Positions 2,444 to 58,678 are shown, counted from the first letter of the stretch. The stretch is DNA of 64,000 nt from Candidatus Omnitrophota bacterium (GCA_043805415.1 JAZDHZ010000035.1:8557-72556), one strand, 5' to 3'. The notes: a model not told the origin generated them from the letters alone. Program-made: numbers and translations.

Positions 2444-2631
2444 ACATTGCTCCTTTGGACTTTTTTTAGGCTAACATATTAAAACAGAATTTTAGCATAT
2501 TTGTTTTGCAAATACAAATAAAACCTGGTTCAAAACACCAGTAATACCCTCACTGATATGGTCACTTAAAGCTGTGAACTAATCTTTTTAAGTATAACTC
2601 TAAACAAACAATCGCTTAAAGCAATTATAGA

Positions 2632-3174
2632 CTAAAGACCTTTAATATTAGTTTCTTTAAGAACGGTTAATAGCTTTTGAGAACTAAAACAGTTCATATA
2701 CCCGACTTGAAGCCCAGTATTGCGCTCGTAAAATCCATAACAATTAGCAAGCGCTGGATCTTGAACAACAGCCACAGAATAGCCCTTCCAATTTGTATGC
2801 TTAATCACTTCTCCAGCAGCGGTCTGATTACCTATCCATAATAAATAAGGCGCGCTCCATAAAACCGCCGCGCTAGGGCCAGGTAAAGATACTCCTTCTT
2901 GATCAATAAAATATTTATCTATAATATAGCTTTTATGATCAGGCAAAAAACCATCCGCTTGAATATCAACTTGATACTGTTTTTTCTCTTTTTTAGTAAA
3001 ACGCAGTTCATGTGTGGTTTTGAGCTGAGCATTTACAGCGTTTAGCGTTGTTTCATATTTCAAATACAATCCATCTTGTAAAGGACTGCCTGATTGCTGA
3101 AAAACCCATAATACCGCAGCTAATACCAGAACAGCTTGCAGAAAAGCAATAAACACAGAGTTAATATTCTTCAT
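2632..3174 (-). CDS. Hypothetical membrane-anchored/secreted protein
   Basis: 180 aa; N-terminal hydrophobic segment (FIAFLQAVLVLAAVLWVF); 4-nt overlap with upstream YkgJ gene suggests co-transcription. Confidence 0.4.
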   Translation of the reverse strand: MKNINSVFIAFLQAVLVLAAVLWVFQQSGSPLQDGLYLKYETTLNAVNAQLKTTHELRFTKKEKKQYQVDIQADGFLPDHKSYIIDKYFIDQEGVSLPGPSAAVLWSAPYLLWIGNQTAAGEVIKHTNWKGYSVAVVQDPALANCYGFYERNTGLQVGYMNCFSSQKLLTVLKETNIKGL

Positions 3175-6632: not shown

Positions 6633-7916
6633 TTAAAACTGCTTTTTAAACTGCAAATAAACTCTATCTTCTTCACTTAGGTTTTCAGCTGTTTTTTCTT
6701 CTGCTGATTTCTGTGTTAATTCTTTTTCCGCGGCAACAGACACTGTATCAGTTATTTTTAGCTGTCCGCCAACAGTCTGGGTAGCCGCAGCTTGTCCAGT
6801 GCCTACTTCCCCAGGCTCAATCTCATAGCTGACCTGGACCTTATCTACTATTGAAGTCTTGACTCCCACACCTTTTGTCTGCCGATTAAAAGACAAGGAA
6901 ATATCACTAAGTCCAATCTGCCGAGCCAGCTGAGTCCCCTTGCCGGCAAAAATAAAATAATCAACAAAATCGCGCACTAAATTTGCTGAGATATTGTCTT
7001 TCCCTAAGCCTAATGATTGACTTCCCCAGCTTCTGCCTGTTGCCAGCATAACCAATAAAAGGTCTTGAGTCAAGGGGGGATAAGAACTTAATATTAGTTT
7101 TGGATTATCGAATGTTCCCTGTAATACAGCACTTATATTTACATCTTCAACCGTTGATCGGCCCCGAATATTAAGTTGCGGCCTTTTTGGATCTGATTCA
7201 AAGACTATTTTACTAGGATCTAGTGTGATAACTGCAGTATTATTACCCGCGGCAATACCTGATTTAAAAACAATTTCTCCGGTTAAAGACATTGCTTCAA
7301 AAAGATCATCGCAGTACATCATTACTGACCCCGCGCATCCGGTAAGATAAAAATTTTCTTTAAAAATCTTATTTATAAAAAACTTGCCTTCCATTGCCAA
7401 ATTTTTCTTTTTCCCGGTTATATGCAAATTAACATCGCTAAACACCCCTGACATTGTGCTAAGAAAACGCTTATTTGTAAACAAATCAATTATTTCACGC
7501 GCGCTGACTTTCTTGGAATAAATATTCAAATCCAATACCCTTTTAGCATAATTACCATAAAAAAGAATCGTATCAGAAAAAGGCAGCTTCAGCCGGCCAT
7601 TATATACATCCAGCGACAAAAGACTCAAGCGGAATTCTTTTAAAGTAATATCAATTCTCTGTACTTTAATCAAAGCTCCGGAAGGAAGTTTTTGGGCATT
7701 TTCAATAAGCACATGATGTAATGATAATTTTGTTCTTAAAGTCCCTTCAGCTTTTTCAAAATTAATATTCCGCGTCTTTAGATACCGGCCTAAAAAAAAA
7801 GTAGCAACAGCCGTAGACCCGTTTGTTGTAAAAAACATGTAATGGCCCACAGCAAGAATAAAAATAGCCGCGATAATAATATTTATCGAAATAAAAGAAA
7901 TATTTTTTATACTCAT
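6633..7916 (-). CDS. Hypothetical N-terminally anchored envelope protein (AsmA/TamB-like?)
   Basis: 427 aa; single N-terminal TM (INIIIAAIFILAVGHYMFF); long predicted periplasmic beta-rich body. Adjacent to the LapA-like gene. Confidence 0.3.
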   Translation of the reverse strand: MSIKNISFISINIIIAAIFILAVGHYMFFTTNGSTAVATFFLGRYLKTRNINFEKAEGTLRTKLSLHHVLIENAQKLPSGALIKVQRIDITLKEFRLSLLSLDVYNGRLKLPFSDTILFYGNYAKRVLDLNIYSKKVSAREIIDLFTNKRFLSTMSGVFSDVNLHITGKKKNLAMEGKFFINKIFKENFYLTGCAGSVMMYCDDLFEAMSLTGEIVFKSGIAAGNNTAVITLDPSKIVFESDPKRPQLNIRGRSTVEDVNISAVLQGTFDNPKLILSSYPPLTQDLLLVMLATGRSWGSQSLGLGKDNISANLVRDFVDYFIFAGKGTQLARQIGLSDISLSFNRQTKGVGVKTSIVDKVQVSYEIEPGEVGTGQAAATQTVGGQLKITDTVSVAAEKELTQKSAEEKTAENLSEEDRVYLQFKKQF

Positions 7917-8279
7917 TATCCCTAAGGTTTTTTAAAAAGCTGTCTATAAGAAAAATTGTCGAAAAATCCGCTTTATTTTATTATACATTAGAGTGGAAAA
8001 AGAAGGCAGGGTTTTTTAATGACAAGATAAACTCAGCGATAATAGCAATCTTTTAATGAGTTAAGCTTTAGACCCGTAGCTTTGCGTCCGCGGATTTCCC
8101 CTGATTTGCCTTTTCGGATATTAAATTTCAAATATAACCCTAAAACAATCTTAATTGCTTTTTAAAACTTATTCAGTAGTGTAGGATTGATTCTAATTTT
8201 TTTCAATATTCGATTTTATAATTTTAAGTATACGCGATTAAATCACTTGAGCTTACGATTATTATTCGCGGTTTATTAC

Positions 8280-10721: not shown

Positions 10722-11108
10722 CTAATCTTGCTTGTATTTCGCATTCAAAGATTTCTTGCGGCACGCAAAGACATAAGCAGTTATTAAATTTTTCACCTCA
10801 AGCGAAGTTTTGCTGAATTTAAATCTTGTTGCATACAGCATTTCTTCGCCTTTATCCCCAATAACTCCGATTAATTCCGAGTTAATAACTTCTGCTTCCG
10901 CCTTAATCGGCTCTTTATTTTTAGGAAGAACTATTGACATCTGCATTTTATCACCGGAACTTAGTTTATGATTTAAATAAACTTTAATCCCTCCGGCACT
11001 AATGTCGCGTGTTTTTGTCCGAATAATTGTAGTTACCTCTGAAGCGCTGGAGACAAATTCGACTTCTACAAGATCTTCAATCCTTTTATATACTCTTTTC
11101 TGATCCAT
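10722..11108 (-). CDS. PilZ-domain protein (c-di-GMP receptor)
   Basis: 128 aa; RVYKR (RxxxR) and TRDISAGGIKV (DxSxGG) PilZ signature motifs. Confidence 0.55.
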   Translation of the reverse strand: MDQKRVYKRIEDLVEVEFVSSASEVTTIIRTKTRDISAGGIKVYLNHKLSSGDKMQMSIVLPKNKEPIKAEAEVINSELIGVIGDKGEEMLYATRFKFSKTSLEVKNLITAYVFACRKKSLNAKYKQD

Positions 11109-14350: not shown

Positions 14351-14709
14351 AATAGCTCTTAGTTCTTAGCTCTTGGCTCTTAGTTTTTTTATTTCTGTTT
14401 TTCCTACGAGCTTAAGAGCTACCAGCTACAAGCTAAATGTATTACCGTTGCGCGGCAGCGCTTTGAATCACACAAAGACTTCCTTTGCTTTTAGGGCAAA
14501 TCTCTTTTTCGGACTTTTAAGTTAATTTAAATTAATTAATATTTACGCCTCTACTCCTAAACCTCCCAGCCTCCTTTCTCCCAATTAATATCCCATCTTC
14601 GTTATTTTCGTCTTATCCTGCAATAGTTGCTTGTCCCGACTTTGTGTGTCGGGGACACGTTTCTACTCTATCCGCTGTACTCAATACTCAAGATGATCAG
14701 CGGATGAAT

Positions 14710-14806
14710 CTCTGATTTTGCCAGTCCTATCAAAATCAGGCTTCAAACCCGCCTAAATAATTATTCCTGCCCTTTATAGTTTATCGCTTTTAGCTTGCAA
14801 CCTTGT
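14710..14806. repeat. Dispersed ~97-bp intergenic element, copy 1 (contains 9-bp inverted repeat CTGATTTTG...CAAAATCAG and promoter-like TTGCAA-N16-TATAAA on the minus strand)
   Basis: ~93% identical to 23657..23753. Located 350-460 nt upstream of btuB. Confidence 0.8.
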
Positions 14807-14854
14807 TACTTTGTGAACTTTAATTAAATTAATAGTTATGAGTTTCAAGCTTTT

Positions 14855-14900: not shown

Positions 14901-15437
14901 TTAGTATTCAATTCCTTTTCTTGCCGCAATCCCTTTTTGATAAGGATGTTTTACTTCCTTGATAAAACTTACCAGATCAGCTTTTTTAATCATTTTTTTT
15001 GTTGCCCCGCGTCCGGTAAAAACCAGCTCAAGATTATTTGGCTTTAAATCCATCAAATCAAGCACCTCTTGTTCCTGGATAAAACCATCCCGCACGCAAA
15101 TATTAATTTCATCGGCAATTAAAAGATCAAACTTGTTTTCTCTAAAAACTTTTTTAATATCTTTGATCCCTTTAGCACAGTCATTTTGGAGAGTTTCAAA
15201 ACAAGCCTGCTTTTTTGTAGCACACAAAGGATGGCTTTTAGCAAAACAATGTACTGCTATGCTGATTTTTTTTAATAAATCATAAACTGGCTTGCATTGT
15301 TTTGGATCTTTATGAAAACTAATATAGCAAACCTTCATTTTATGAGCACTGGCCCGCATAGCCAGTCCGCAAGCAGCAGTTGTCTTTCCCTTGCCTGGTC
15401 CGGTATAAATCTGAATTAACCCTCTTTTATTTTTCAT
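14901..15437 (-). CDS. cobO: Cob(I)alamin/cob(I)yrinic acid a,c-diamide adenosyltransferase (CobO/BtuR type)
   Basis: 178 aa; IQIYTGPGKGKTTAACGLAMRA P-loop and overall CobA/CobO family similarity. Confidence 0.8.
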   Translation of the reverse strand: MKNKRGLIQIYTGPGKGKTTAACGLAMRASAHKMKVCYISFHKDPKQCKPVYDLLKKISIAVHCFAKSHPLCATKKQACFETLQNDCAKGIKDIKKVFRENKFDLLIADEINICVRDGFIQEQEVLDLMDLKPNNLELVFTGRGATKKMIKKADLVSFIKEVKHPYQKGIAARKGIEY

Positions 15438-16225
15438 AATTCCTCATTATCTTTTGCAACCAGAAAAACATGCGGCTTTTGCGAAACTGGATTTTTACTA
15501 ACCAAAACATCAGTTTTATAAACAGTCTCAATAGTTGCCTTATTTAAAACCTGTTCCACAGAACCGATTTTATGCACCAATCCTTTATCCATTAAAACCA
15601 GCTGATCGCAATATTCCGCGGCAAAGTTAAGTTCATGCAATACAATGATCACGCTTAAATTATGTTTTTTATTTAAACGCTTTAACAAATCCATAATATA
15701 CATTTGATGGAAAATATCCAAGTGAACTATTGGCTCATCTAATAATAAGAGTTTGGGTTTTTGCGCTAAGGACTTGGCAATAATTGCCATTTGCCTTTCT
15801 CCAGCGCTTAATTCGCAGAGGTTTCTTTTAGCAAAGCCAACCAAGTCTGTCATTTCTAAGGATTGCCGGATAATTTTCTGATCAAGCGCGTTTTCAAAAA
15901 ACTGAAAATTCCCCTGATGCGGAATCCGGCCTAAAGCAACGAAATCCTCCACACTAATATCAAAATTAGCTTCTATATCATTACTCACCACCGCAATATT
16001 TTGGGCAAGTTCCTTATAACTCATCCTGCTAATATTCTTTTGGTTAAATATCGCTGATCCAGCCCGCAGCGGCAATACTCTGGTTATTGCTCTGAGCAAT
16101 GTAGTCTTGCCTGAGCCATTGGGCCCGATTATGCCGACAATCTGCTTTTCCCGAACATTAAAATTAATATCTCTTAAGCAGAATTGTTCTGAATATCCAC
16201 AGCTGATATTTTTAAGTTGCAACAT
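15434..16225 (-). CDS. btuD: ABC transporter ATP-binding protein (BtuD/FecE type)
   Basis: 263 aa; Walker A GPNGSGKTT, signature LSAGERQ, Walker B LLLDEP. Confidence 0.8.
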   Translation of the reverse strand: MLQLKNISCGYSEQFCLRDINFNVREKQIVGIIGPNGSGKTTLLRAITRVLPLRAGSAIFNQKNISRMSYKELAQNIAVVSNDIEANFDISVEDFVALGRIPHQGNFQFFENALDQKIIRQSLEMTDLVGFAKRNLCELSAGERQMAIIAKSLAQKPKLLLLDEPIVHLDIFHQMYIMDLLKRLNKKHNLSVIIVLHELNFAAEYCDQLVLMDKGLVHKIGSVEQVLNKATIETVYKTDVLVSKNPVSQKPHVFLVAKDNEEL

Positions 16226-16227
16226 TT

Positions 16228-17238
16228 CTATCTGCCCCTTTTATGATTTAAAGCATAAATAAAAATTGTCCCGCCGACAATGCCGGTAATAACTCCCACT
16301 GGTAATTCCAAGGGAGAGATGATGCTTCTAGCTATCGCGTCACTGGCAATTAAAAATATTGCTCCGGCAAGATAACTGCATATCAGCAATATTCGGTGAT
16401 CTCCGCCGGTAAACATCCGGACAAAATGCGGCATAACCAGCCCAACAAAGCCAATAATTCCCGCAACCGAAACACTGGCTCCGGTGAGCAAGGAAGTCAA
16501 CAGAAAAAGAATTTTCTGCGTTCTTTGGGTATTAACTCCCAGATGCATCGCATGTTCAGTGCCCAAGGAAAAAGCATTTAACTCTCTGCAGAAGATATAG
16601 GAAACAAATAAACCGAGAATGGAAATTAAAACCATTATTTTTATCAGTATCCAGCTGGACTGTTCCAAACATCCCATTGTCCAGAAAATAATCCCATGCA
16701 GATCTTCTACCCGCATAACCGCCATAATCAGCATAAACAAAGAAGAACAGATAAAACTGATCATCACTCCGGATAAAAGAAGTCCCTGCAGCTTCAAGAC
16801 GCCTTTGCGGTAGCTTAAAAAATAAACAAATAAAATCACCAGACCTGAACCTAAAAATCCGGCCAGGGGCATGGATATAACCCCAAGAGTTTTGTTAAGA
16901 TGAAAAGCAATGTTCAGACAAACCCCTAAAGCCGCGCCGCCGGATATACCCAGAGTATATGGTTCAACCAAAGGATTGCGGAACATGCCTTGCAAAATAA
17001 CCCCGGCAAGGCTCAAGGCGCTGCCCACAGCAAAGCCCAGAATTATTCTCGGCAAACGCACATTAAGCAGGATACTGTAGTTTGTTGAAGTCTTATCAGG
17101 ACTTAGAAAAAATTTCAGCACTTCTTCCAGCGGGATTTTAGTTGCCCCGACAGACAAAGCAAAACCCGCGGTTATAAATAAGATGAGCAGCAGCATCCCG
17201 ATTAAAATCAGCCATGATACAATTTTTTTAAACAGCAT
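16228..17238 (-). CDS. btuC: FecCD-family ABC permease (BtuC type)
   Basis: 336 aa polytopic membrane protein with FecCD family character. Confidence 0.8.
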   Translation of the reverse strand: MLFKKIVSWLILIGMLLLILFITAGFALSVGATKIPLEEVLKFFLSPDKTSTNYSILLNVRLPRIILGFAVGSALSLAGVILQGMFRNPLVEPYTLGISGGAALGVCLNIAFHLNKTLGVISMPLAGFLGSGLVILFVYFLSYRKGVLKLQGLLLSGVMISFICSSLFMLIMAVMRVEDLHGIIFWTMGCLEQSSWILIKIMVLISILGLFVSYIFCRELNAFSLGTEHAMHLGVNTQRTQKILFLLTSLLTGASVSVAGIIGFVGLVMPHFVRMFTGGDHRILLICSYLAGAIFLIASDAIARSIISPLELPVGVITGIVGGTIFIYALNHKRGR

Positions 17239-18082
17239 TTATTTCTTCCTTATATAGAAATTCAATGATCAGCTTAAGCGTATTAGCAAAATTATCCGGA
17301 ATTGGATTGCAAATCACATTCGGATCAATACAATAAACCTTTTTATTTTTTACAGCATTAATTGTTTGATATCTATTCCATATCTGCTTTTCATCATCTG
17401 CCGCGATTCCCATGGAAGCAATAATAATCACATCCGGATTTAGTTCCACAACCTTTTCCCGGGAATATATGCCGGTTGGCGCGTTTTCCGCGATGTTTAT
17501 CCCTCCGGCAAGCTTAATCAAATCATTAACAAAAAACTCCTTATTCATTGTAAACAATGGTTTACTGCCCACTTGAATAAACACTTTTTGCCGAGGTTTG
17601 TTTAAAATTCCCTGATTAAGCGCTTTAACTTTTTTCTGCGCTTGAGCAACAATTTCTTTTGCTTGTGCCTGCTTACGCACTAAGCTTGCCAGTTTTAAAA
17701 ACTGATCGCAAATTTGAGAAAAATCTTTTACCTGCTCAAAATCCACAACATTAAGCTTGATTTGGCGCATTTTAGTTTTCGCCTTGGCATTAGTCAAAGG
17801 AGTTGTTAATACTAAATCCGGGCGCAAAGATATCACCTTTTCCAGATTAACCTCGACAATTGAACCGGCTTTTTCTTTTTTCTGCGCTTCGGGCGGACGA
17901 TTACAATAAGTCGTTACTCCGACAATGTCATCCTCAACGCCTAATAAAAAAAGCCCTTCGGTTAAATATGAACCTAAAGAAACAATCCTTTTCGGGCCGC
18001 TGTCCTGCTCGGTGGCAAAACAATTACCACTAAAAGCAATAATAAAAGAAACAAGCAGTATATAAAATAATCTTTTTATCAT
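17228..18082 (-). CDS. btuF: Periplasmic binding protein of ABC transporter (BtuF-like cobalamin-binding protein)
   Basis: 284 aa; signal peptide; class III PBP (PRIVSLGSYLTEGLFLLG, PDLVL); first gene downstream of the cobalamin riboswitch. Confidence 0.7.
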   Translation of the reverse strand: MIKRLFYILLVSFIIAFSGNCFATEQDSGPKRIVSLGSYLTEGLFLLGVEDDIVGVTTYCNRPPEAQKKEKAGSIVEVNLEKVISLRPDLVLTTPLTNAKAKTKMRQIKLNVVDFEQVKDFSQICDQFLKLASLVRKQAQAKEIVAQAQKKVKALNQGILNKPRQKVFIQVGSKPLFTMNKEFFVNDLIKLAGGINIAENAPTGIYSREKVVELNPDVIIIASMGIAADDEKQIWNRYQTINAVKNKKVYCIDPNVICNPIPDNFANTLKLIIEFLYKEEINAV

Positions 18083-18246
18083 CTTTCTCCTAAATAAAAT
18101 TCATCATCCGCCTAAAACATGGCGAAACCTTCGACCTGTGCTCATTGCGCTTGCCTCGCCGCTTTTCCGGCGGGAGATTGTTACATCCTGTAACCGCCAC
18201 AAAACACACATCGTGTGCTCATGGCGAGATTGTTACATCCTGTAAC

Positions 18247-18286
18247 AAAAAAAATCCTTTATGTCATAAATCATGACTTAAAGGAT
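18247..18286 (-). terminator. Intrinsic terminator of the riboswitch expression platform
   Basis: On the minus strand: 12-bp stem (one mismatch) AUCCUUUAAGUCAUGA..UCAUGACAUAAAGGAU followed by U8 (plus-strand A8 at 18247-18254). Confidence 0.6.
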
Positions 18287-18379
18287 TGCACCCTGTTTCT
18301 TCACCCTTCCGCGAGGTTCAAAATATATTCTTCTCACAACCCAGGCAGATATTCTGACTCTCCTGCTTTTCTGACTGCC

Positions 18380-18540: not shown

Positions 18541-18568
18541 ATTATAGCAGACCGATTATCATAGTCAA
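18541..18568 (-). promoter_or_regulatory. Sigma70-like promoter TTGACT-N16-TATAAT driving the riboswitch/btu operon
   Basis: Minus strand: TTGACT (18568-18563), 16-nt spacer, TATAAT (18546-18541); ~30 nt upstream of the aptamer 5' end. Confidence 0.5.
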
Positions 18569-18706: not shown

Positions 18707-19441
18707 CTATCCGCTAATCGCTGAACTTTTTGCCGGATACTTGCCGCAGGAAAATTTTTCACCTTCAGGACAGTATTTCAGTTCTTCGCACTTTGCTCCG
18801 GCGTTTTCAAAAATACAAGGCAGTTTTTCCTGAGCCATGGCCAACATTTGATTGGCTAAAGCGCGGATTTCCCACTGCGCCCGGATACAACAGCGATGTT
18901 TGAAAAAATGCAGCAATTCCCGGCAATTCATGGTTAAAACAATTTTAGTTTCCGCGGCCTGGGGCAAAACAAATCGCGCGTCCTGATTAGCCTGTTCCCC
19001 GGTTTTTCCTATTTGCTTAAACCTGGCCAATAGCGCGTTATAGCTTAACTGAATATCCCGCATGGCCTGGACAAATTCAGCTTTAAGTTCAGCATCTGAT
19101 TCTATTGTTGGCGGAATAATATATTGAAAATTACTTTCCTGCACATAACGCTGGCTTTGCTGCGAATAGCTGGCCATGCGGTGTCTGACCAATTGATGAG
19201 TAAGCGCCCGGGAAACCCCTTCCACGGCAAAAGTAAATTTCACATGTTCCAGCGGGCTGTCATGGCCTGAGGCAACAACTTTCCGCACAAACTCAGTCTT
19301 ATCCTGGAGAGAAACATTATCTTGATTAAATATATCTCCGGCAAATTGCGCGCTATAGCACTGCCGGCATGCGGCATAAATAAGTGAAATCGCATTTTCT
19401 GTTGATTCTAAAAGCTGTACGTTTAACTTTACTTGTCCCAC
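18707..19441 (-). CDS. thyX: FAD-dependent thymidylate synthase ThyX
   Basis: 244 aa; ThyX motif RHRMASYSQQSQRY and upstream SGHDSPLEH. Confidence 0.85.
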   Translation of the reverse strand: MGQVKLNVQLLESTENAISLIYAACRQCYSAQFAGDIFNQDNVSLQDKTEFVRKVVASGHDSPLEHVKFTFAVEGVSRALTHQLVRHRMASYSQQSQRYVQESNFQYIIPPTIESDAELKAEFVQAMRDIQLSYNALLARFKQIGKTGEQANQDARFVLPQAAETKIVLTMNCRELLHFFKHRCCIRAQWEIRALANQMLAMAQEKLPCIFENAGAKCEELKYCPEGEKFSCGKYPAKSSAISG

Positions 19442-19480: not shown

Positions 19481-21730
19481 TTATTCTTTTTCTAATATCC
19501 CCAGAAATAAATCCACAAGCAATGGATCAAACTGAGTACTGGCAACCTCTTTTATCGTCCTCATGGCAACTTTTTTACTACGTGCTTTACGATAACGCCG
19601 ATTGGAAGTCAAAGCCTCATAAGTATCAGCCAGAGCAATGATTCTCGCTCCCAAAGGAATTTCCTCGCCTTTTAAGCCATAAGGGTAGCCCTTACCATCC
19701 CAGCGCTCATGATGATGAAGCATCAGCGGAATAATTGATTGGAAGAAATGAATCGGCCTTAAAATATCCGCTCCGATCTGCGGATGTTTTTTTATTTCTT
19801 CATATTCCAGTGCAGTTAACTTTGACTTTTTCATTAATATTTTTTCACTTATCCCGATTTTTCCCAGATCATGGAGTATTGCAGCTTGCCGAATCCGCTC
19901 TATTTCATCTTTGGGCAGATTTTTTGCTTTTGCCAGCTCAGTGGCATAATGCACGGTTTTTTCAACATGCTCTCCGGTATAATGGTCTTTTATCTCAATT
20001 GTTTTAGCAAAAGCAAAAATCGCTTCGGCCAAGCTTTGATTTGCCCGCTTTGTCAGCTTACCTAATTTATCCTGTAAAGCCACAACATCCGTGCCTTTTT
20101 CTGAATCAAGCGTTGAAACCGGTCTGGTACTGACAATATCCTGATATGAATATACCTTATCTCCCCCGGTTTCTTTGACTTTGTCCAGAATACTATCAGC
20201 GACTTTTATAAAATCACCGGGATTATGAATTCTATCATCCGGGAAACAGGCAACAGCCACGCTTATTTTCAGTTTAACTTTATGCGTTTTATTACCAAAA
20301 GTGTATAATTTAATAATTTCCAGCAGCCTTTGAGCTAAAACCAAAACAATCTCTTTATCCGCCCCGGGAGTAATAATAATAAATTCCTCTCCGCCATAAC
20401 GGATCACAGTATCATATTTACGCACCATTTGGGTTAATTGCTCAGAAAACTGCTTTAAAACCAAATCGCCGAACTGATGGCCGTAAACATCATTTATTGA
20501 TTTAAAATAATCCACATCCAGGAGAATTACTGAAAGCGGCAAGGAATGTCTTTTGGCCCGCATAAATTCAGCTTCAATCGCTTCTTCGAAATAACGATGA
20601 TTATACAGATTAGTTAAAGCATCCCGTAAAGCTAACTGTTTAAGCCGCATATTCATCTTAAGCAGTTCTTTATTTAATGATTTTATATCCCGGTCCATTT
20701 GCCGGCGCCTGATCACATTAGCAAACATGTCCGCGACAAGCCTTAACAGACCCTGAATATCATCAGCCCAGGGTTTTTCCTCTCGCACAGAATCAAAACC
20801 TAAAAAACCGATTACCCCTCCCTGATAAACCATGGGCGCATTTACCAAAGAACGAATACCGGCTAATTCCCATTCTTTTTTTTCCGCTTGCGCCGACTCA
20901 GGTAAATCTGCCAGAGAATAAACATGCACAATCTCCATGGCTTTAATCTGATTAATAATCCAGGGAAAACTGCTTATCGGAACTTGCTTTAATCTTTGAA
21001 TCTGCGGTTCAATACCCAGCGCGCACCATTCATGAGTATTACTCATATTTTTATCATTATCTGAAAAAATAAATATATAACAGCGGTCAATGCCGGCAAA
21101 TTCACCCAACTTGGCAAGAGCTTCATTTATCCCATTATCGAAATTTGCCGCGTTAAGATTAATGAATTTAGCGGATAATGCTGTAATAACATTTTTAAAT
21201 TCATTTTTATAATGCAGCTCTTCTTCTACTTTTTTTCTTTGCGTAATATCCCGCAAAACAATCATAAACGCCACTGGACGGCCCTGGCGATTTTTAATTA
21301 TCGAGCTATTTATTTCAACTGATATCCGCTGCCCGTCGCCTCGGAGTATCTCATACTCAATATTACGCAAAGGAGAACTTAAGGTTTTCTGCAAATTAGT
21401 CCTAGCCCGGTCGCGATCTTCCGACACAATAAGCTCAAAAGCGTTTTTTCCGATCAGGATTTCCAGGTCTTTAATCCCGTATAATTCCAAAGCCTGATCA
21501 TTAAGCATAATGATATTCCCGGATAAATCTAATAAGGCAATTGCTTCCGGCGAGATCTCGACTAAGGTATGGTATAATTCCATACTTTCATGCAGTACTT
21601 CTTCAGCAAGGTTTTTGCCTTTCTTCCCGCTGGTCAGCTGGGAAATCTGGGCTTTAAGATCTTCCATCTCCCGCAATAACTCATCTTTTTCGTTTTTTTT
21701 ATCCATGGAATCCGTTAAGGCTAAAATCAT
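19481..21730 (-). CDS. Multidomain c-di-GMP signalling protein: coiled-coil + PAS + GAF + GGDEF + HD-GYP
   Basis: 749 aa; GGDEF active-site RYGGEEF; HD-GYP motifs (HDLGK ... HHERWDGKGYPYGL); PAS and GAF-like regions N-terminal. Confidence 0.8.
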   Translation of the reverse strand: MILALTDSMDKKNEKDELLREMEDLKAQISQLTSGKKGKNLAEEVLHESMELYHTLVEISPEAIALLDLSGNIIMLNDQALELYGIKDLEILIGKNAFELIVSEDRDRARTNLQKTLSSPLRNIEYEILRGDGQRISVEINSSIIKNRQGRPVAFMIVLRDITQRKKVEEELHYKNEFKNVITALSAKFINLNAANFDNGINEALAKLGEFAGIDRCYIFIFSDNDKNMSNTHEWCALGIEPQIQRLKQVPISSFPWIINQIKAMEIVHVYSLADLPESAQAEKKEWELAGIRSLVNAPMVYQGGVIGFLGFDSVREEKPWADDIQGLLRLVADMFANVIRRRQMDRDIKSLNKELLKMNMRLKQLALRDALTNLYNHRYFEEAIEAEFMRAKRHSLPLSVILLDVDYFKSINDVYGHQFGDLVLKQFSEQLTQMVRKYDTVIRYGGEEFIIITPGADKEIVLVLAQRLLEIIKLYTFGNKTHKVKLKISVAVACFPDDRIHNPGDFIKVADSILDKVKETGGDKVYSYQDIVSTRPVSTLDSEKGTDVVALQDKLGKLTKRANQSLAEAIFAFAKTIEIKDHYTGEHVEKTVHYATELAKAKNLPKDEIERIRQAAILHDLGKIGISEKILMKKSKLTALEYEEIKKHPQIGADILRPIHFFQSIIPLMLHHHERWDGKGYPYGLKGEEIPLGARIIALADTYEALTSNRRYRKARSKKVAMRTIKEVASTQFDPLLVDLFLGILEKE

Positions 21731-22813: not shown

Positions 22814-23551
22814 TTATAGTTTCATTAAAAAAACCTTATCCTTAAGCAGTTTTTCATACTTTGGTTTATACTCTGGGTAATGTTTTTCTATTGCTTTAAC
22901 CATCAAGCTTTGCTTTGCCATATTAAAATTAATAATCTCAAATTCCGCTTGCTTAACAATTTCTTTGGCTGAATTCACAATCTGTTTAATATCCGAGATC
23001 ATTGGCAAAATCGGGCAAAAATAACTAATCACCTTAAGCTTTTTATTTTGCAGTTTTAGCACTGTTTCCAGACCTGGTTTAAAATCAGGCGCCTGCATAT
23101 TAAATTCACTGTTTAGAACATCCGGCAAAGCATTAATTGTAAAATAAATACTCTGACAATTACCTTTTCCTAAAACATCAAGATAATCAGTAATCAATGT
23201 TGAGCGGCTCATAATTGTAAACTGAATAGCTTGCTCATTGAGTAATTCTAATATCTGCCGGGTAATTCCATATTTTTTTTCAACCGGCTGAAAACACTCA
23301 GTAATTGAACCCAGCAAAACACTTTTCGGCTTAATCAATTCCAGCTCTTTTTTCAGCACTTCAATAGCATTAATTTTAACCTTAACATAAGTTCCCCAGG
23401 CATGATTTTGTTTTTTAGCGGTTTTGCCAAACTGCGCATAACAAAAACAGCAGCCCAGCTGACAGCCCTGATAAGGATTAATCACAAAAGGCGCCAGATT
23501 TATGCCTGTCGGACGCAGGATTGTTTCAACATTTTGCTCAATAATTTTCAT
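22814..23551 (-). CDS. Radical SAM protein (spore-photoproduct-lyase/DNA-repair-like family)
   Basis: 245 aa; CQLGCCFCYA provides a CxxxCxxC cluster motif near the N-terminus. Confidence 0.55.
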   Translation of the reverse strand: MKIIEQNVETILRPTGINLAPFVINPYQGCQLGCCFCYAQFGKTAKKQNHAWGTYVKVKINAIEVLKKELELIKPKSVLLGSITECFQPVEKKYGITRQILELLNEQAIQFTIMSRSTLITDYLDVLGKGNCQSIYFTINALPDVLNSEFNMQAPDFKPGLETVLKLQNKKLKVISYFCPILPMISDIKQIVNSAKEIVKQAEFEIINFNMAKQSLMVKAIEKHYPEYKPKYEKLLKDKVFLMKL

Positions 23552-23656
23552 AATTAACTCTTTTGCTGCAGAACATACTTTATTACAGGGTTCGGTCTAG
23601 AATCAATCATTTTGGCTCATTCTCGCCTTACCTCCTGTAAGGCTCCGAGGATAAAG

Positions 23657-23753
23657 CTCTGATTTTGCCAGTCCTATCAAAATCAGGCTTTAAACCCGCC
23701 TAAATAATTATTCTAGCCCTTTATAGTTTATAGCTTTTAGCTTGCAGCCTTGT
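23657..23753. repeat. Dispersed ~97-bp intergenic element, copy 2
   Basis: ~93% identical to 14710..14806; abuts the stop codon of the B12-binding radical SAM gene and lies ~100-200 nt upstream of the 22814..23551 start. Confidence 0.8.
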
Positions 23754-23757
23754 GTCC

Positions 23758-56388: not shown

Positions 56389-58299
56389 TTAAATTGCCTG
56401 TTCAAGTATCCGGCAATTTTCTACTGATAAGCTATGAGTAAGCTTGTCTTGAAATCTATGGTTTGTCGCGGGAAATAAATTAAGTCCCCGCTCTTTAAAA
56501 TATTTATTCAGAAATTCTCTAAAAAGTTTTTTCCGATAACTATCATGCGCCTCATATGGCCGTTTACTAAAAGGAGATTGCCTGAACAACTCCGGATTGC
56601 GGCGGCTTTGTGAGCTAAAATACTCCCATTCCTCATTACTGCCTTCAATCAAAACAAACTCCGGCATATTGTTTTTCTTCAATATAATATTGATTAATGA
56701 TCTGCCGGTATGACCATTATTGTTAAAAAAAGGATGCAGCTCCATCACCAACCGCCAATGCGCCTCCGCGGCCAAATCCACTGGATTCAATTTGTTCGGA
56801 TTATGATTCATAAGCGCGAGGATCTCGTTCATGTTCCGGGAAATCTCATCCTGACTCATTGCCGGGAATATTTTAATAATATCCCCTTGAAGCCCCTCGT
56901 CATTAAGTTTATCTCTCACTCTTACCATCTCAGTCCTGTATTTCCCCGCTTCCTCTAGGGGCAATCCAGCCGCGCGATAATGCAGATAATTAATCCTGCG
57001 AACATCGTGTTCTGATATCAATCTGCCCGGGACCGCAAAGTGATTGATTAACCTTGCGATTTCTTCTTGCAAGGCTGTATCTTTTTCTGAACCCAAGGGC
57101 ATTTTACGGTATTCAATGATCACCGCGACTTGACCCGCGTCTTGATCATCTTCCCGTCCGCCTTCAATGATCCGGACAACTTTAACGTCATTCTTAAGAT
57201 GCAGATTAACTGCCTGGGATAATAATTTCCGGCCGGTGCGTAAGATAAATTTTCCGATAGGCTCACCGCCATAATTTTCCAAAAAATCATTGTAATCGGC
57301 CCACGAAGCTTGCTCAATAGTCAAATTCTTTTCTGACAAAAGCTGGCGAAAAGTAATTCCTTGTTTACCAGGCTTGTCAAAATAAGCTTCTCTGTCTTGA
57401 CTCATTTCTTTTTCATAACTCTTTTTCGTAACAACCTTAGGAAACAGCGCAAGGGCATAATCCGCGTACGCGTAGGGCTGCTTTTGCTTATTCCTCAAGC
57501 TTCGTGAAGCGTCTAATTGCAAAAGATAGCTTAACGGCGACATCTTATTCTGGTACTCCCCATATCCGCTAAGCGGAGTAAGCGTATAACGCCCCATGCC
57601 TTTGGTTAAAGATTCCGTGGCTTTAAGCAATTCAGTGGCAATGTAAGGACGTAATCTCAATTGCTTGTATTTTTCTTCCTGCACAGCCACCGCATAATGA
57701 ATCCAGCAGTTGTCTTTATATCCGCCGCTATTCCGGGGAATACTCATCAGCTGCTGCAAAGAAGCTGGAATAGCCTCGGCATTTTCCGCGTAAACCGAAG
57801 CGCACCAGACCACACCGATGATCTTTTTATCCGGATCATTCATATCCCGGGCAACCAGATGTCCCTTGGGATTATTGTCAAAAATCATTCGCGCTTTATC
57901 TGGTTTTAATTCAAATTTCGCGCCCCAGATTTCATTATGAACCTTAACTGCCTGCTCAAGATCATCTTGTTTTAAGCTCTCGATTTTAAATTTATGTCCT
58001 TTAATCGTCACTTCCTTTTCTACCGAAAGAACCTCGCTCAAACCGCTAAATTCAGGAGCAGGCAGTTTCCCTGGATGTGAAAGCTGCTTATATGCGTCCT
58101 GAAATAATCCATTGTTAACCAAAACCTGCGGGCTTAGACACTCTATTTGTTTTTTCTCAAGCGTGAGGCTGGCGCTAAAACCAAAGGCCTGCGCGCTGAA
58201 TATCTGTGCCAATACCAGAGCGATCATTTTCAGGAGTATTTTATTTGTACTCATATTATTCTCTTGCCCCTTGCTTATGCCAAAAAATAAGCATAGCAT
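56389..58299 (-). CDS. Signal-peptide protein with divergent Fic/Doc-like C-terminal domain
   Basis: 636 aa (alternative start at Met16, 58254, gives signal peptide MSTNKILLKMIALVLAQIFSAQA|FGF); Fic-like core AAEAHWRLVMELHPFFNNNGHTGRSLINIIL (compare HPFx[DE]GNGR). Confidence 0.4.
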   Translation of the reverse strand: MLCLFFGISKGQENNMSTNKILLKMIALVLAQIFSAQAFGFSASLTLEKKQIECLSPQVLVNNGLFQDAYKQLSHPGKLPAPEFSGLSEVLSVEKEVTIKGHKFKIESLKQDDLEQAVKVHNEIWGAKFELKPDKARMIFDNNPKGHLVARDMNDPDKKIIGVVWCASVYAENAEAIPASLQQLMSIPRNSGGYKDNCWIHYAVAVQEEKYKQLRLRPYIATELLKATESLTKGMGRYTLTPLSGYGEYQNKMSPLSYLLQLDASRSLRNKQKQPYAYADYALALFPKVVTKKSYEKEMSQDREAYFDKPGKQGITFRQLLSEKNLTIEQASWADYNDFLENYGGEPIGKFILRTGRKLLSQAVNLHLKNDVKVVRIIEGGREDDQDAGQVAVIIEYRKMPLGSEKDTALQEEIARLINHFAVPGRLISEHDVRRINYLHYRAAGLPLEEAGKYRTEMVRVRDKLNDEGLQGDIIKIFPAMSQDEISRNMNEILALMNHNPNKLNPVDLAAEAHWRLVMELHPFFNNNGHTGRSLINIILKKNNMPEFVLIEGSNEEWEYFSSQSRRNPELFRQSPFSKRPYEAHDSYRKKLFREFLNKYFKERGLNLFPATNHRFQDKLTHSLSVENCRILEQAI

Positions 58300-58678
58300 C
58301 GCCTAGATTAAGAAAAACAAAATTTTTTATTCACAACTTCTTTATTTATATATATTTAAGCCTACTTAGCCATTGAAATGATGTTAAAGTATACCACAAG
58401 ATATGACTCTCTGCAAACCTCGGGAAATAGGCAAGTTAAGCGCTATTTTTAAACATGTAATAAGCGGAAATTTTTTGCGAATTAAGTTTTTTTATCTATG
58501 TGAAATTAAATGGCAGAAAGGCAGGGATTGTTCAAAGCTATTTTTCGCAACTACCTGATACCCGAAAATCGCGGACTAAATCTTTACTTTTCAAGGAATT
58601 ATTGTTTATCCAGGATTATACAATGTATTCACTTTGGATGGGCACGGTTTGAGCATTAGAAAGAATATTTCTTGAGGT

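Follow-up and report, generated by a model that had tools for sequence, protein, structure and literature searches.

Published CsrA sites are GGA motifs displayed in hairpin loops. In general form they read AnGGA; the consensus obtained by SELEX for E. coli is RUACARGGAUGU, in which ACA and GGA do not vary, and the one derived from RsmE is (A/U)CANGGANG(U/A) (PMC4347634, PMC6692469). The leaders and sponges recognised by the CsrA/RsmA family (CsrB/CsrC, RsmX/Y/Z) carry multiple GGAs in loops or linkers, as does the leader described here. CsrB repeats read CAGGA(U/C/A)G, and Mercante et al. are said to have found in 2009 that one CsrA dimer bridges 10-63 nt. By sequence, the likeness extends to CsrA/RsmA targets that include mRNA-borne antagonists (the Salmonella fim 5'UTR, C. 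jejuni flaA mRNA), and comprises ACA...GGAUG(U) flanks, tandem-duplication repeats, dimer-spaced pairs and one pair at or near the Shine-Dalgarno sequence. There are also differences. The Csr/Rsm sRNAs are driven by GacA, whereas the module reported here lies in an mRNA leader behind a riboswitch terminator; their canonical loops are AnGGA, whereas ours are AGGAN; there is no sequence or CM similarity to the Rfam Csr/Rsm families; and the partner in Omnitrophota is a candidate.

A second precedent is EutX/Rli55, an AdoCbl-riboswitch-gated sRNA that sequesters the ANTAR regulator EutV, its long form being made only without B12 (PMC5821096). There, as in the locus studied here, a cobalamin riboswitch terminator decides whether a downstream protein-binding RNA (putative in our case) is made. 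EutX/Rli55 is a stand-alone sRNA with one dual-hairpin ANTAR site bearing hexaloops, whereas our locus holds a tandem GGA array that continues into the btuFCD-cobO mRNA. ANTAR substrates consist of two adjacent hairpins with hexaloops that have A at position 1 and G at position 4. By eye, no hairpin pair of this type occurs in the window, where the loops are 3-5 nt (GGA/AGGAU) and the hairpins 52 nt apart.

The btu operon leader and its duplicated unit

The window, as we call the whole 64,000-nt stretch of DNA that was analysed, comes from a member of the Omnitrophota, to our knowledge a phylum without cultured members. Most of the locus, on the minus strand, is a standard cobalamin-riboswitch btu operon. 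A sigma-70-type promoter (TTGACT-16-TATAAT, 18541..18568; 11/12, TG-extended) drives the riboswitch and the btuF operon, with thyX (18707-19441, minus strand) on its upstream side. The cobalamin riboswitch and terminator that the original prediction had placed before btuF are both there: the aptamer (RF00174, 18327..18536) scores 80.7 bits against a gathering score of 31.5, and the expression platform is an intrinsic terminator (18247..18287) with a hairpin of interrupted 15-bp stem (18253-18287) followed by U8. A simple terminator scan missed it because the stem has a bulge; in relatives it is kept with compensatory changes (GUCAU/AUGAC to GCCAU/AUGGC). The first gene encodes a btuF-like periplasmic binding protein (PF01497, 17228..18082), its ATG at 18082 preceded by UUUAGGAGAAAG. 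It is followed by the co-directional, overlapping or abutting genes btuC (FecCD), btuD (ABC ATPase) and cobO/btuR (corrinoid adenosyltransferase) at 14901..17238, and btuB and tonB lie further downstream of cobO. What sets this operon apart from ordinary ones is its terminator-to-btuF leader, which comprises 165 nt of repeated, structured RNA, whereas in the related loci L004, L006 and L007 (BtuF 74-77% identical), with the same riboswitch and terminator, the Shine-Dalgarno sequence follows within ~15 nt.

The 21-mer GTTACAGGATGTAACAATCTC is present in exactly two copies, 52 nt apart on the minus strand (18246-18226, 18194-18174), confirming the duplication first noticed. Within each, GTTACA-GGA-TGTAAC forms a perfect 6+3+6 palindrome. 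Allowing up to three mismatches brought no third copy in the 64 kb, where shuffles gave an expectation of 0; chance does not account for the exact 21-nt duplicate. The repeat also exceeds 21 nt, as a second repeated piece, ATGAGCACA, and alignment to relatives define a tandem unit of ~52 nt. Copy A (18195..18246, 52 nt; nhmmer E=1.6e-13 against the unit profile) is intact and consists of the 5' hairpin GUUAC-AGGAU-GUAAC (18246-18232, GGA at 18240-18238), a linker AAUCU and a hairpin CGCCAUGAGCACAC-GAU-GUGUGUUUUGUGGCG (18226-18195). Copy B (18100..18194) is expanded by two insertions; its 5' hairpin GUUAC-AGGAU-GUAAC (18194-18180, GGA at 18188-18186) is followed by the hairpin CCCGCCG-GAAAAG-CGGCG.AGG (18174-18154), with a GGA (18168-18166) partly in the stem, and by a 3' part made up of ATGAGCACA... 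and then GGCGGAUGAUGAA (GGA at 18109-18107), which runs into the Shine-Dalgarno AGGAG. All of these elements are on the minus strand. Tandem Repeats Finder reported no repeat in the window because it contains fewer than two clean copies. The CAGGATG heptamer occurs 12 times in the window against 4.5 expected, an uninformative excess since 10 of the 12 are in coding sequence on the coding strand.

Both ATGAGCACA starts fall inside the repeated unit and open 13-codon mini-ORFs beginning MST (MSTRCVFCGGYRM, MSTGRRFRHVLGG), and L003 has MSTRCAFLDG*, so that the elements could be leader peptides whose translation regulates btuF. The first ORF, however, has no Shine-Dalgarno sequence, conservation of the peptides does not go beyond what nucleotide identity among close relatives would give, L014 offers MDV* alone, and the 52/53-nt periods break any reading frame. 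We consider such peptides the least credible account of the leader.

Several other elements of the window were noted in passing. A ~105-nt stretch, ~95% identical, occurs twice on the minus strand, both times in intergenic sequence: at 14704-14808, upstream of btuB after cobO, and at 23651-23755, between the gene for a B12-binding radical SAM protein and the radical SAM gene that comes next. Both copies hold a promoter-like TTGCAA-N17-TATAAA, and the leader they have in common contains a 9-bp hairpin, CUGAUUUUG-AUAGGACUGG-CAAAAUCAG, another GGA loop; the stretch has no Rfam match and is not in the relatives' loci. Directly upstream of btuB, inside the 550-nt cobO-btuB spacer (roughly 400-930 nt in relatives), a sub-threshold cobalamin riboswitch match (14351-14533, minus strand; 11.3 bits, E=2) may represent a second B12 element that has degenerated or diverged. 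A c-di-GMP-I riboswitch (8024-8120, minus strand; 42 bits against a gathering score of 35) is located upstream of an ORF with a TamB domain (6633-7916), and nearby genes encode a PilZ protein (10722-11108) and one of PAS-GAF-GGDEF-HD-GYP type (19481-21730).

Conservation of the unit in related leaders

The exact BtuF and BtuC proteins of the window had no database record, and orthologous leaders were reached through BtuF homologues. In L014 (NCBI GCA_054039915.1; BtuF 64% identical), which shares the GGDEF-thyX-riboswitch-btuF synteny of the window, 477 nt are inserted between terminator and Shine-Dalgarno sequence, as against 165 nt in the window. Between the riboswitch terminator and btuF, it carries 6.9 tandem repeats of a 53-nt unit, CAGGATGCAAyAATCCGCC....AACATGGATGTGTGATTTcaGGCGGATAAA (2531-2898, plus strand; 93% matches). 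The L014 leader contains 27 GGAs, including 13 ACA(N)GGAUG motifs; there are two sites per unit, and the GGA pairs within units are 25-28 nt apart. Substitutions between the copies are patterned, and every ACA(N)GGAUG is kept. In L015, the same gene assembled independently, the sequence starts within the last unit, and assemblers are expected to break at repeats. Since neither 52 nor 53 nt is a multiple of three, the array is non-coding; a 162-aa ORF on the opposite strand of the L014 array has no Pfam match and is probably spurious. The loop of the inner hairpin reads GGAU in L014 and GAU in the window/L003 lineage, which has lost the apical GGA of the longer hairpin. Further upstream, the riboswitch region of L014 begins with a conserved 5' segment (ACAGGTGTTA...), and ~170 nt (2066-2236) lie between this and the Rfam-matched aptamer. 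A short hairpin is all that the window and L016 have at this place; the longer L014 stretch may reflect an insertion into the 5' aptamer region.

The remaining relatives vary. L002 (BtuF 84% identical) has two small hairpins and L009 (71%) three, with the forms CAUUUC-AGGAU-GAAAUG, AAAAC-AGGAU-GUUUU, AUUUC-AGGAA-GAAAU and AAAAU-AGGAC-GUUUU. L017 (68%), of which 71 nt of upstream sequence are covered, has a two-tier hairpin with an apical UUGAC-AGGAG-GUCAA, and L003 (79%) shares the 3' part of the window's leader with a stemless first element. The L016 leader holds no GGA hairpin, and the extended leader is absent from L004, L006 and L007, so the module is dispensable for btu regulation. Module copy number ranges from 1 to 7 among the related Omnitrophota that carry it and is 0 in some relatives.

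A second conserved piece, (A)CCCUGAGC...GUCGAAGGGU, was seen in these leaders. It forms a hairpin in L002 (4417-4461), L016 and L018, and is duplicated in L009, where its loop hosts the AAAAC-AGGAU-GUUUU hairpin; the window (~18128-18139, minus strand) retains only GGUCGAAGGUUU of it. The piece resembles the riboswitch 3' segment CGCGGAAGGGUGAAG. In L004 (279-1559) and L006 (927-1907), a phage-type integrase gene replaces thyX directly upstream of the riboswitch, so synteny upstream of the btu operon is broken there. A metagenome scan with a conserved 19-mer of the riboswitch added only duplicates of L004/L006 and two unrelated loci; the sole match in a genome-collection scan, in a beta-proteobacterial MAG, was judged a chance one, as it falls within coding sequence and has a terminator of its own after it.

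Between the window and L014, the repeat unit is 72% identical and hence as conserved as the riboswitch aptamer (67%), the terminator region (73%), btuF (68.5%) and btuC (72%), whereas the promoter spacer (46%), the cobO-btuB spacer (48%) and the last ~100 nt before the ATG (52%) are close to the baseline of shuffled units (mean 47%, maximum 59%). Matches to a profile of the unit were confined to btuF leaders within 176 kb, comprising the window and related loci. AGGAN pentaloops closed by at least five consecutive pairs were found at 6 of the 18 distinct AGGA sites in the extended leaders, compared with 7/893 AGGA sites elsewhere in these loci (Fisher p=4e-8, ~40-fold enrichment), the six including two orthologous pairs and thus amounting to ~4 independent hairpins. 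Per-leader shuffling tests were modest (p 0.006 to 0.065) next to this stronger, site-based comparison. Comparing orthologous leaders, as had been proposed, showed the AGGAN loop retained with changed stems. In a set of nine elements, AGGA and the closing G never vary, whereas four of five stem pairs change on both sides (GUUAC/GUAAC, CAUUUC/GAAAUG, AAAAC/GUUUU, UUGAC/GUCAA around the AGGAN loop), and 89% of stem cells pair as against 60% in shuffles; this covariation count is descriptive because seven of the nine elements were chosen for their hairpin look. RNAalifold on the units found no both-sided changes, since the L014 copies are near-identical. Taken together, the conservation results suggest that the unit family is under selection and is not drifting DNA.

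A neutral minisatellite would nevertheless accommodate part of this record. Slippage could have duplicated the post-terminator leader, the old Shine-Dalgarno region included, with copy number drifting thereafter (0, 1, 2, 7). Copy number is indeed highly variable, with none in some relatives; the window copies are 100% identical over 21 nt, pointing to a recent event; and insertions interrupt copy B. The 5' element moreover resembles the Shine-Dalgarno region of the short-leader relatives L004 and L006 (CAGGAAGUAAUGAU versus CAGGAUGUAACAAU, 11/14), so its GGA could be a Shine-Dalgarno inheritance rather than the product of protein-driven selection. Neutrality is harder to reconcile with 72% identity of the unit between genomes whose neutral spacers agree no better than random sequence (46-52%), which argues against it. 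AGGAN-loop hairpins also recur with different stems in non-homologous types (L002/L009 versus window/L014/L017), and the L014 copies have been substituted in patterns that keep all ACA(N)GGAUG motifs. Overall, we regard a minisatellite as quite unlikely.

The same comparisons bear on a DNA-level alternative, raised in the original prediction, in which a dimeric transcription factor binds the 15-bp palindrome GTTACAnnnTGTAAC; the bound protein would act as a roadblock from sites five helical turns apart. The perfect 6+3+6 palindrome and a 52-53 bp period close to five turns of B-DNA would suit such an operator. Its arms, however, vary or are lost (CATTTC/GAAATG in L002, non-palindromic AAAC..GCAA in the internal copies of L014, none in L003), whereas the "spacer" CAGGATG is invariant, the reverse of usual operators. 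The sites are located ~300 nt downstream of the promoter and beyond the terminator, the palindrome has no other copy in 64 kb, and no regulator gene adjoins the operon. With arms that change or vanish around a fixed CAGGATG, at sites behind the terminator, a DNA operator is very unlikely, and this part of the prediction is abandoned.

Folding, GGA display and the search for a partner

Folded singly, each palindrome gives a 6-bp stem with a GGA triloop at -2.8 kcal/mol; including the neighbouring UU/AA lowers this to -6.1. The minimum-energy fold instead joins both palindromes in one 71-nt hairpin (-31.4 kcal/mol, versus -27.9 for an alternative with three local hairpins). The local GGA-loop hairpins that had been proposed form when the element is folded alone and give way to joint pairing in the favoured structure, while the GGAs of both repeats are unpaired in either conformation (ensemble P=1.0). 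Small AGGAN stems are weak across the leaders (0 to -3.6 kcal/mol), with one predicted unfolded, and global folds of the tandem arrays were set aside as uninformative because the units cross-pair.

Five GGAs, the two repeat GGAs among them, are found within 167 nt of the window leader. The proposed spacing of 10-60 nt holds for the two hairpins (52 nt) but not for the Shine-Dalgarno GGA, which is 98 nt from the GGA of the second hairpin, with two more GGAs between them. The segment GGCGGAUGAUGA, conserved in L003, stands 19 nt upstream of the btuF Shine-Dalgarno AGGAG (18087..18091, minus strand; P(unpaired) ~0.5), itself 4 nt before the AUG. Both the 52 nt from hairpin 1 to hairpin 2 and the 19 nt from GGAUGA to the Shine-Dalgarno sequence are within the 10-63 nt ascribed to a CsrA dimer; a GGA next to the Shine-Dalgarno is weak evidence because every Shine-Dalgarno sequence contains GGA.

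The window holds seven AGGAN-loop hairpins, of which the intergenic, sense ones are the two unit copies and a third at 23643-23625. The latter is the second loop motif that had been pointed out near a radical SAM gene; it is real, reads GCCUUAC-AGGAG-GUAAGGC and folds at -10.3 kcal/mol. This hairpin (23625-23643, minus strand; z=-3.2) is 74 nt upstream of the radical SAM gene (22814-23551), and the AUG of a 5-codon mini-ORF, MSQND*, follows 9 nt downstream.

In its sequence, the unit comes close to described CsrA sites. The apical ACAUGGAUGU of L014 fits (A/U)CANGGANG(U/A) at 10/10 positions, and UUACAGGAUGU of the window equals RUACARGGAUGU minus one base, with ACA and GGAUGU kept. The L014 linker element AACAGGAUGC likewise retains ACA and GGAUG, the base between them missing, and the window hairpins have AGGA, not the canonical AnGGA. 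In number of sites, L014 (roughly 13-21) is comparable to the 18 of CsrB (PMC4347634). No Rfam family, Csr/Rsm or other, matches the repeat region: CsrB, CsrC, RsmX/Y/Z and TwoAYGGAY gave nothing on it in either the window or L014, although E values up to 10 were admitted, and the only RsmY line (14.9 bits versus 57) fell on the riboswitch platform.

A gene for the partner was also sought. Neither the 64-kb window nor 112 kb of related loci yielded a csrA (PF02599); weak tblastn matches to six CsrA queries at 57817-58312 were spurious, being antisense to a 636-aa ORF. A database search with a consensus CsrA gave no Omnitrophota label among the 120 matches listed. The KO table published by Seymour et al. 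(2023) assigns K03563 (csrA) and K13626 (fliW) to at least two Omnitrophota genomes, and FlgV, a flagellar protein, has been reported in Omnitrophota. The text of two papers on Omnitrophota makes no mention of CsrA or flagella. We know of no study of CsrA biology in this phylum. CsrA is a plausible candidate for the partner of the module.

The module could also be a selected RNA with a partner other than CsrA, whether a Shine-Dalgarno mimic that holds 30S subunits as a standby or decoy site, a site for another RNA-binding protein, or a set of hairpins that stabilise or process the mRNA. Conservation and AGGAN enrichment apply equally to this reading, and AGGA is the core of the Shine-Dalgarno sequence. 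The 11/14 match of the 5' element to the Shine-Dalgarno region of short-leader relatives, in the same post-terminator place, is in keeping with it, as are the retention of the inner hairpin in the window/L003 lineage despite its lost GGA and the 23643-23625 hairpin, with its SD-like AGGAG and an AUG 9 nt later. Set against these points, the flanks ACA...UG(U) match CsrA consensus positions outside the SD/anti-SD pairing, the 13 or more sites in L014 are typical of protein sponges, and an AGGA abutting AUG is unable to act as a productive Shine-Dalgarno sequence. We hold a non-CsrA module to be unlikely, yet it is the rival to be taken most seriously.

A possible B12-gated platform for a GGA-binding protein

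The explanation we prefer, tentatively and at somewhat less than even confidence, is that the unit serves as a B12-gated multivalent binding platform or sponge for a CsrA-type protein. The palindromes are the 5' ends of two tandem ~52-nt structured RNA modules in the btuFCD-cobO leader. The array starts directly 3' of the U-run and is therefore present only on read-through transcripts, and read-through of a cobalamin riboswitch terminator would mean low B12. Each module shows (A)CAGGAUG, in a small hairpin loop or a linker, beside a longer hairpin that in relatives has a second GGA at its apex. A dimeric GGA-binding protein, which we infer to be of the CsrA/RsmA family, could bind the module multivalently, reach the pair formed by GGAUGA and the Shine-Dalgarno sequence, and tune btuF translation in a direction that we can only presume. 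Amplified leaders may also titrate the protein, passing B12 scarcity on to its other targets.

A second regulatory layer on B12 uptake, beyond the riboswitch, had been proposed at the outset. Of its two suggested forms, the operator has fallen away, while display of GGA at the RNA level, with invariant loops and a 40-fold enrichment, has gained ground. That a GGA-presenting layer lies behind the riboswitch is well supported by the comparison of leaders, its function being presumed to act through RNA.

One may go further and suppose that a riboswitch-gated CsrA sponge in an mRNA leader broadcasts B12 status to the whole Csr regulon. From two GGA hairpins in the window to ~13-14 GGA sites in L014, such leaders would titrate CsrA at low B12, their copy number tuned by tandem amplification. 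We think this doubtful, and offer it as speculation. If true, a riboswitch would here be linked to the Csr system for the first time, and the EutX principle would have been invented a second time, independently.

Should the partner prove to be CsrA, synthesis of a multivalent CsrA-binding RNA would depend on a metabolite riboswitch, a new wiring that would join two of the best-known bacterial RNA control systems. The family would also show how a sponge originates and is tuned as a 52-nt unit is amplified in tandem, with copy numbers of 1 to 7 in related genomes. The copy in the window is a modest, two-unit version, and the interest lies in the amplifiable, conserved family to which it belongs and in the possible link between riboswitch and Csr system. 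Whatever its partner, the module is a conserved structured RNA without an Rfam family, one open to modelling and survey.
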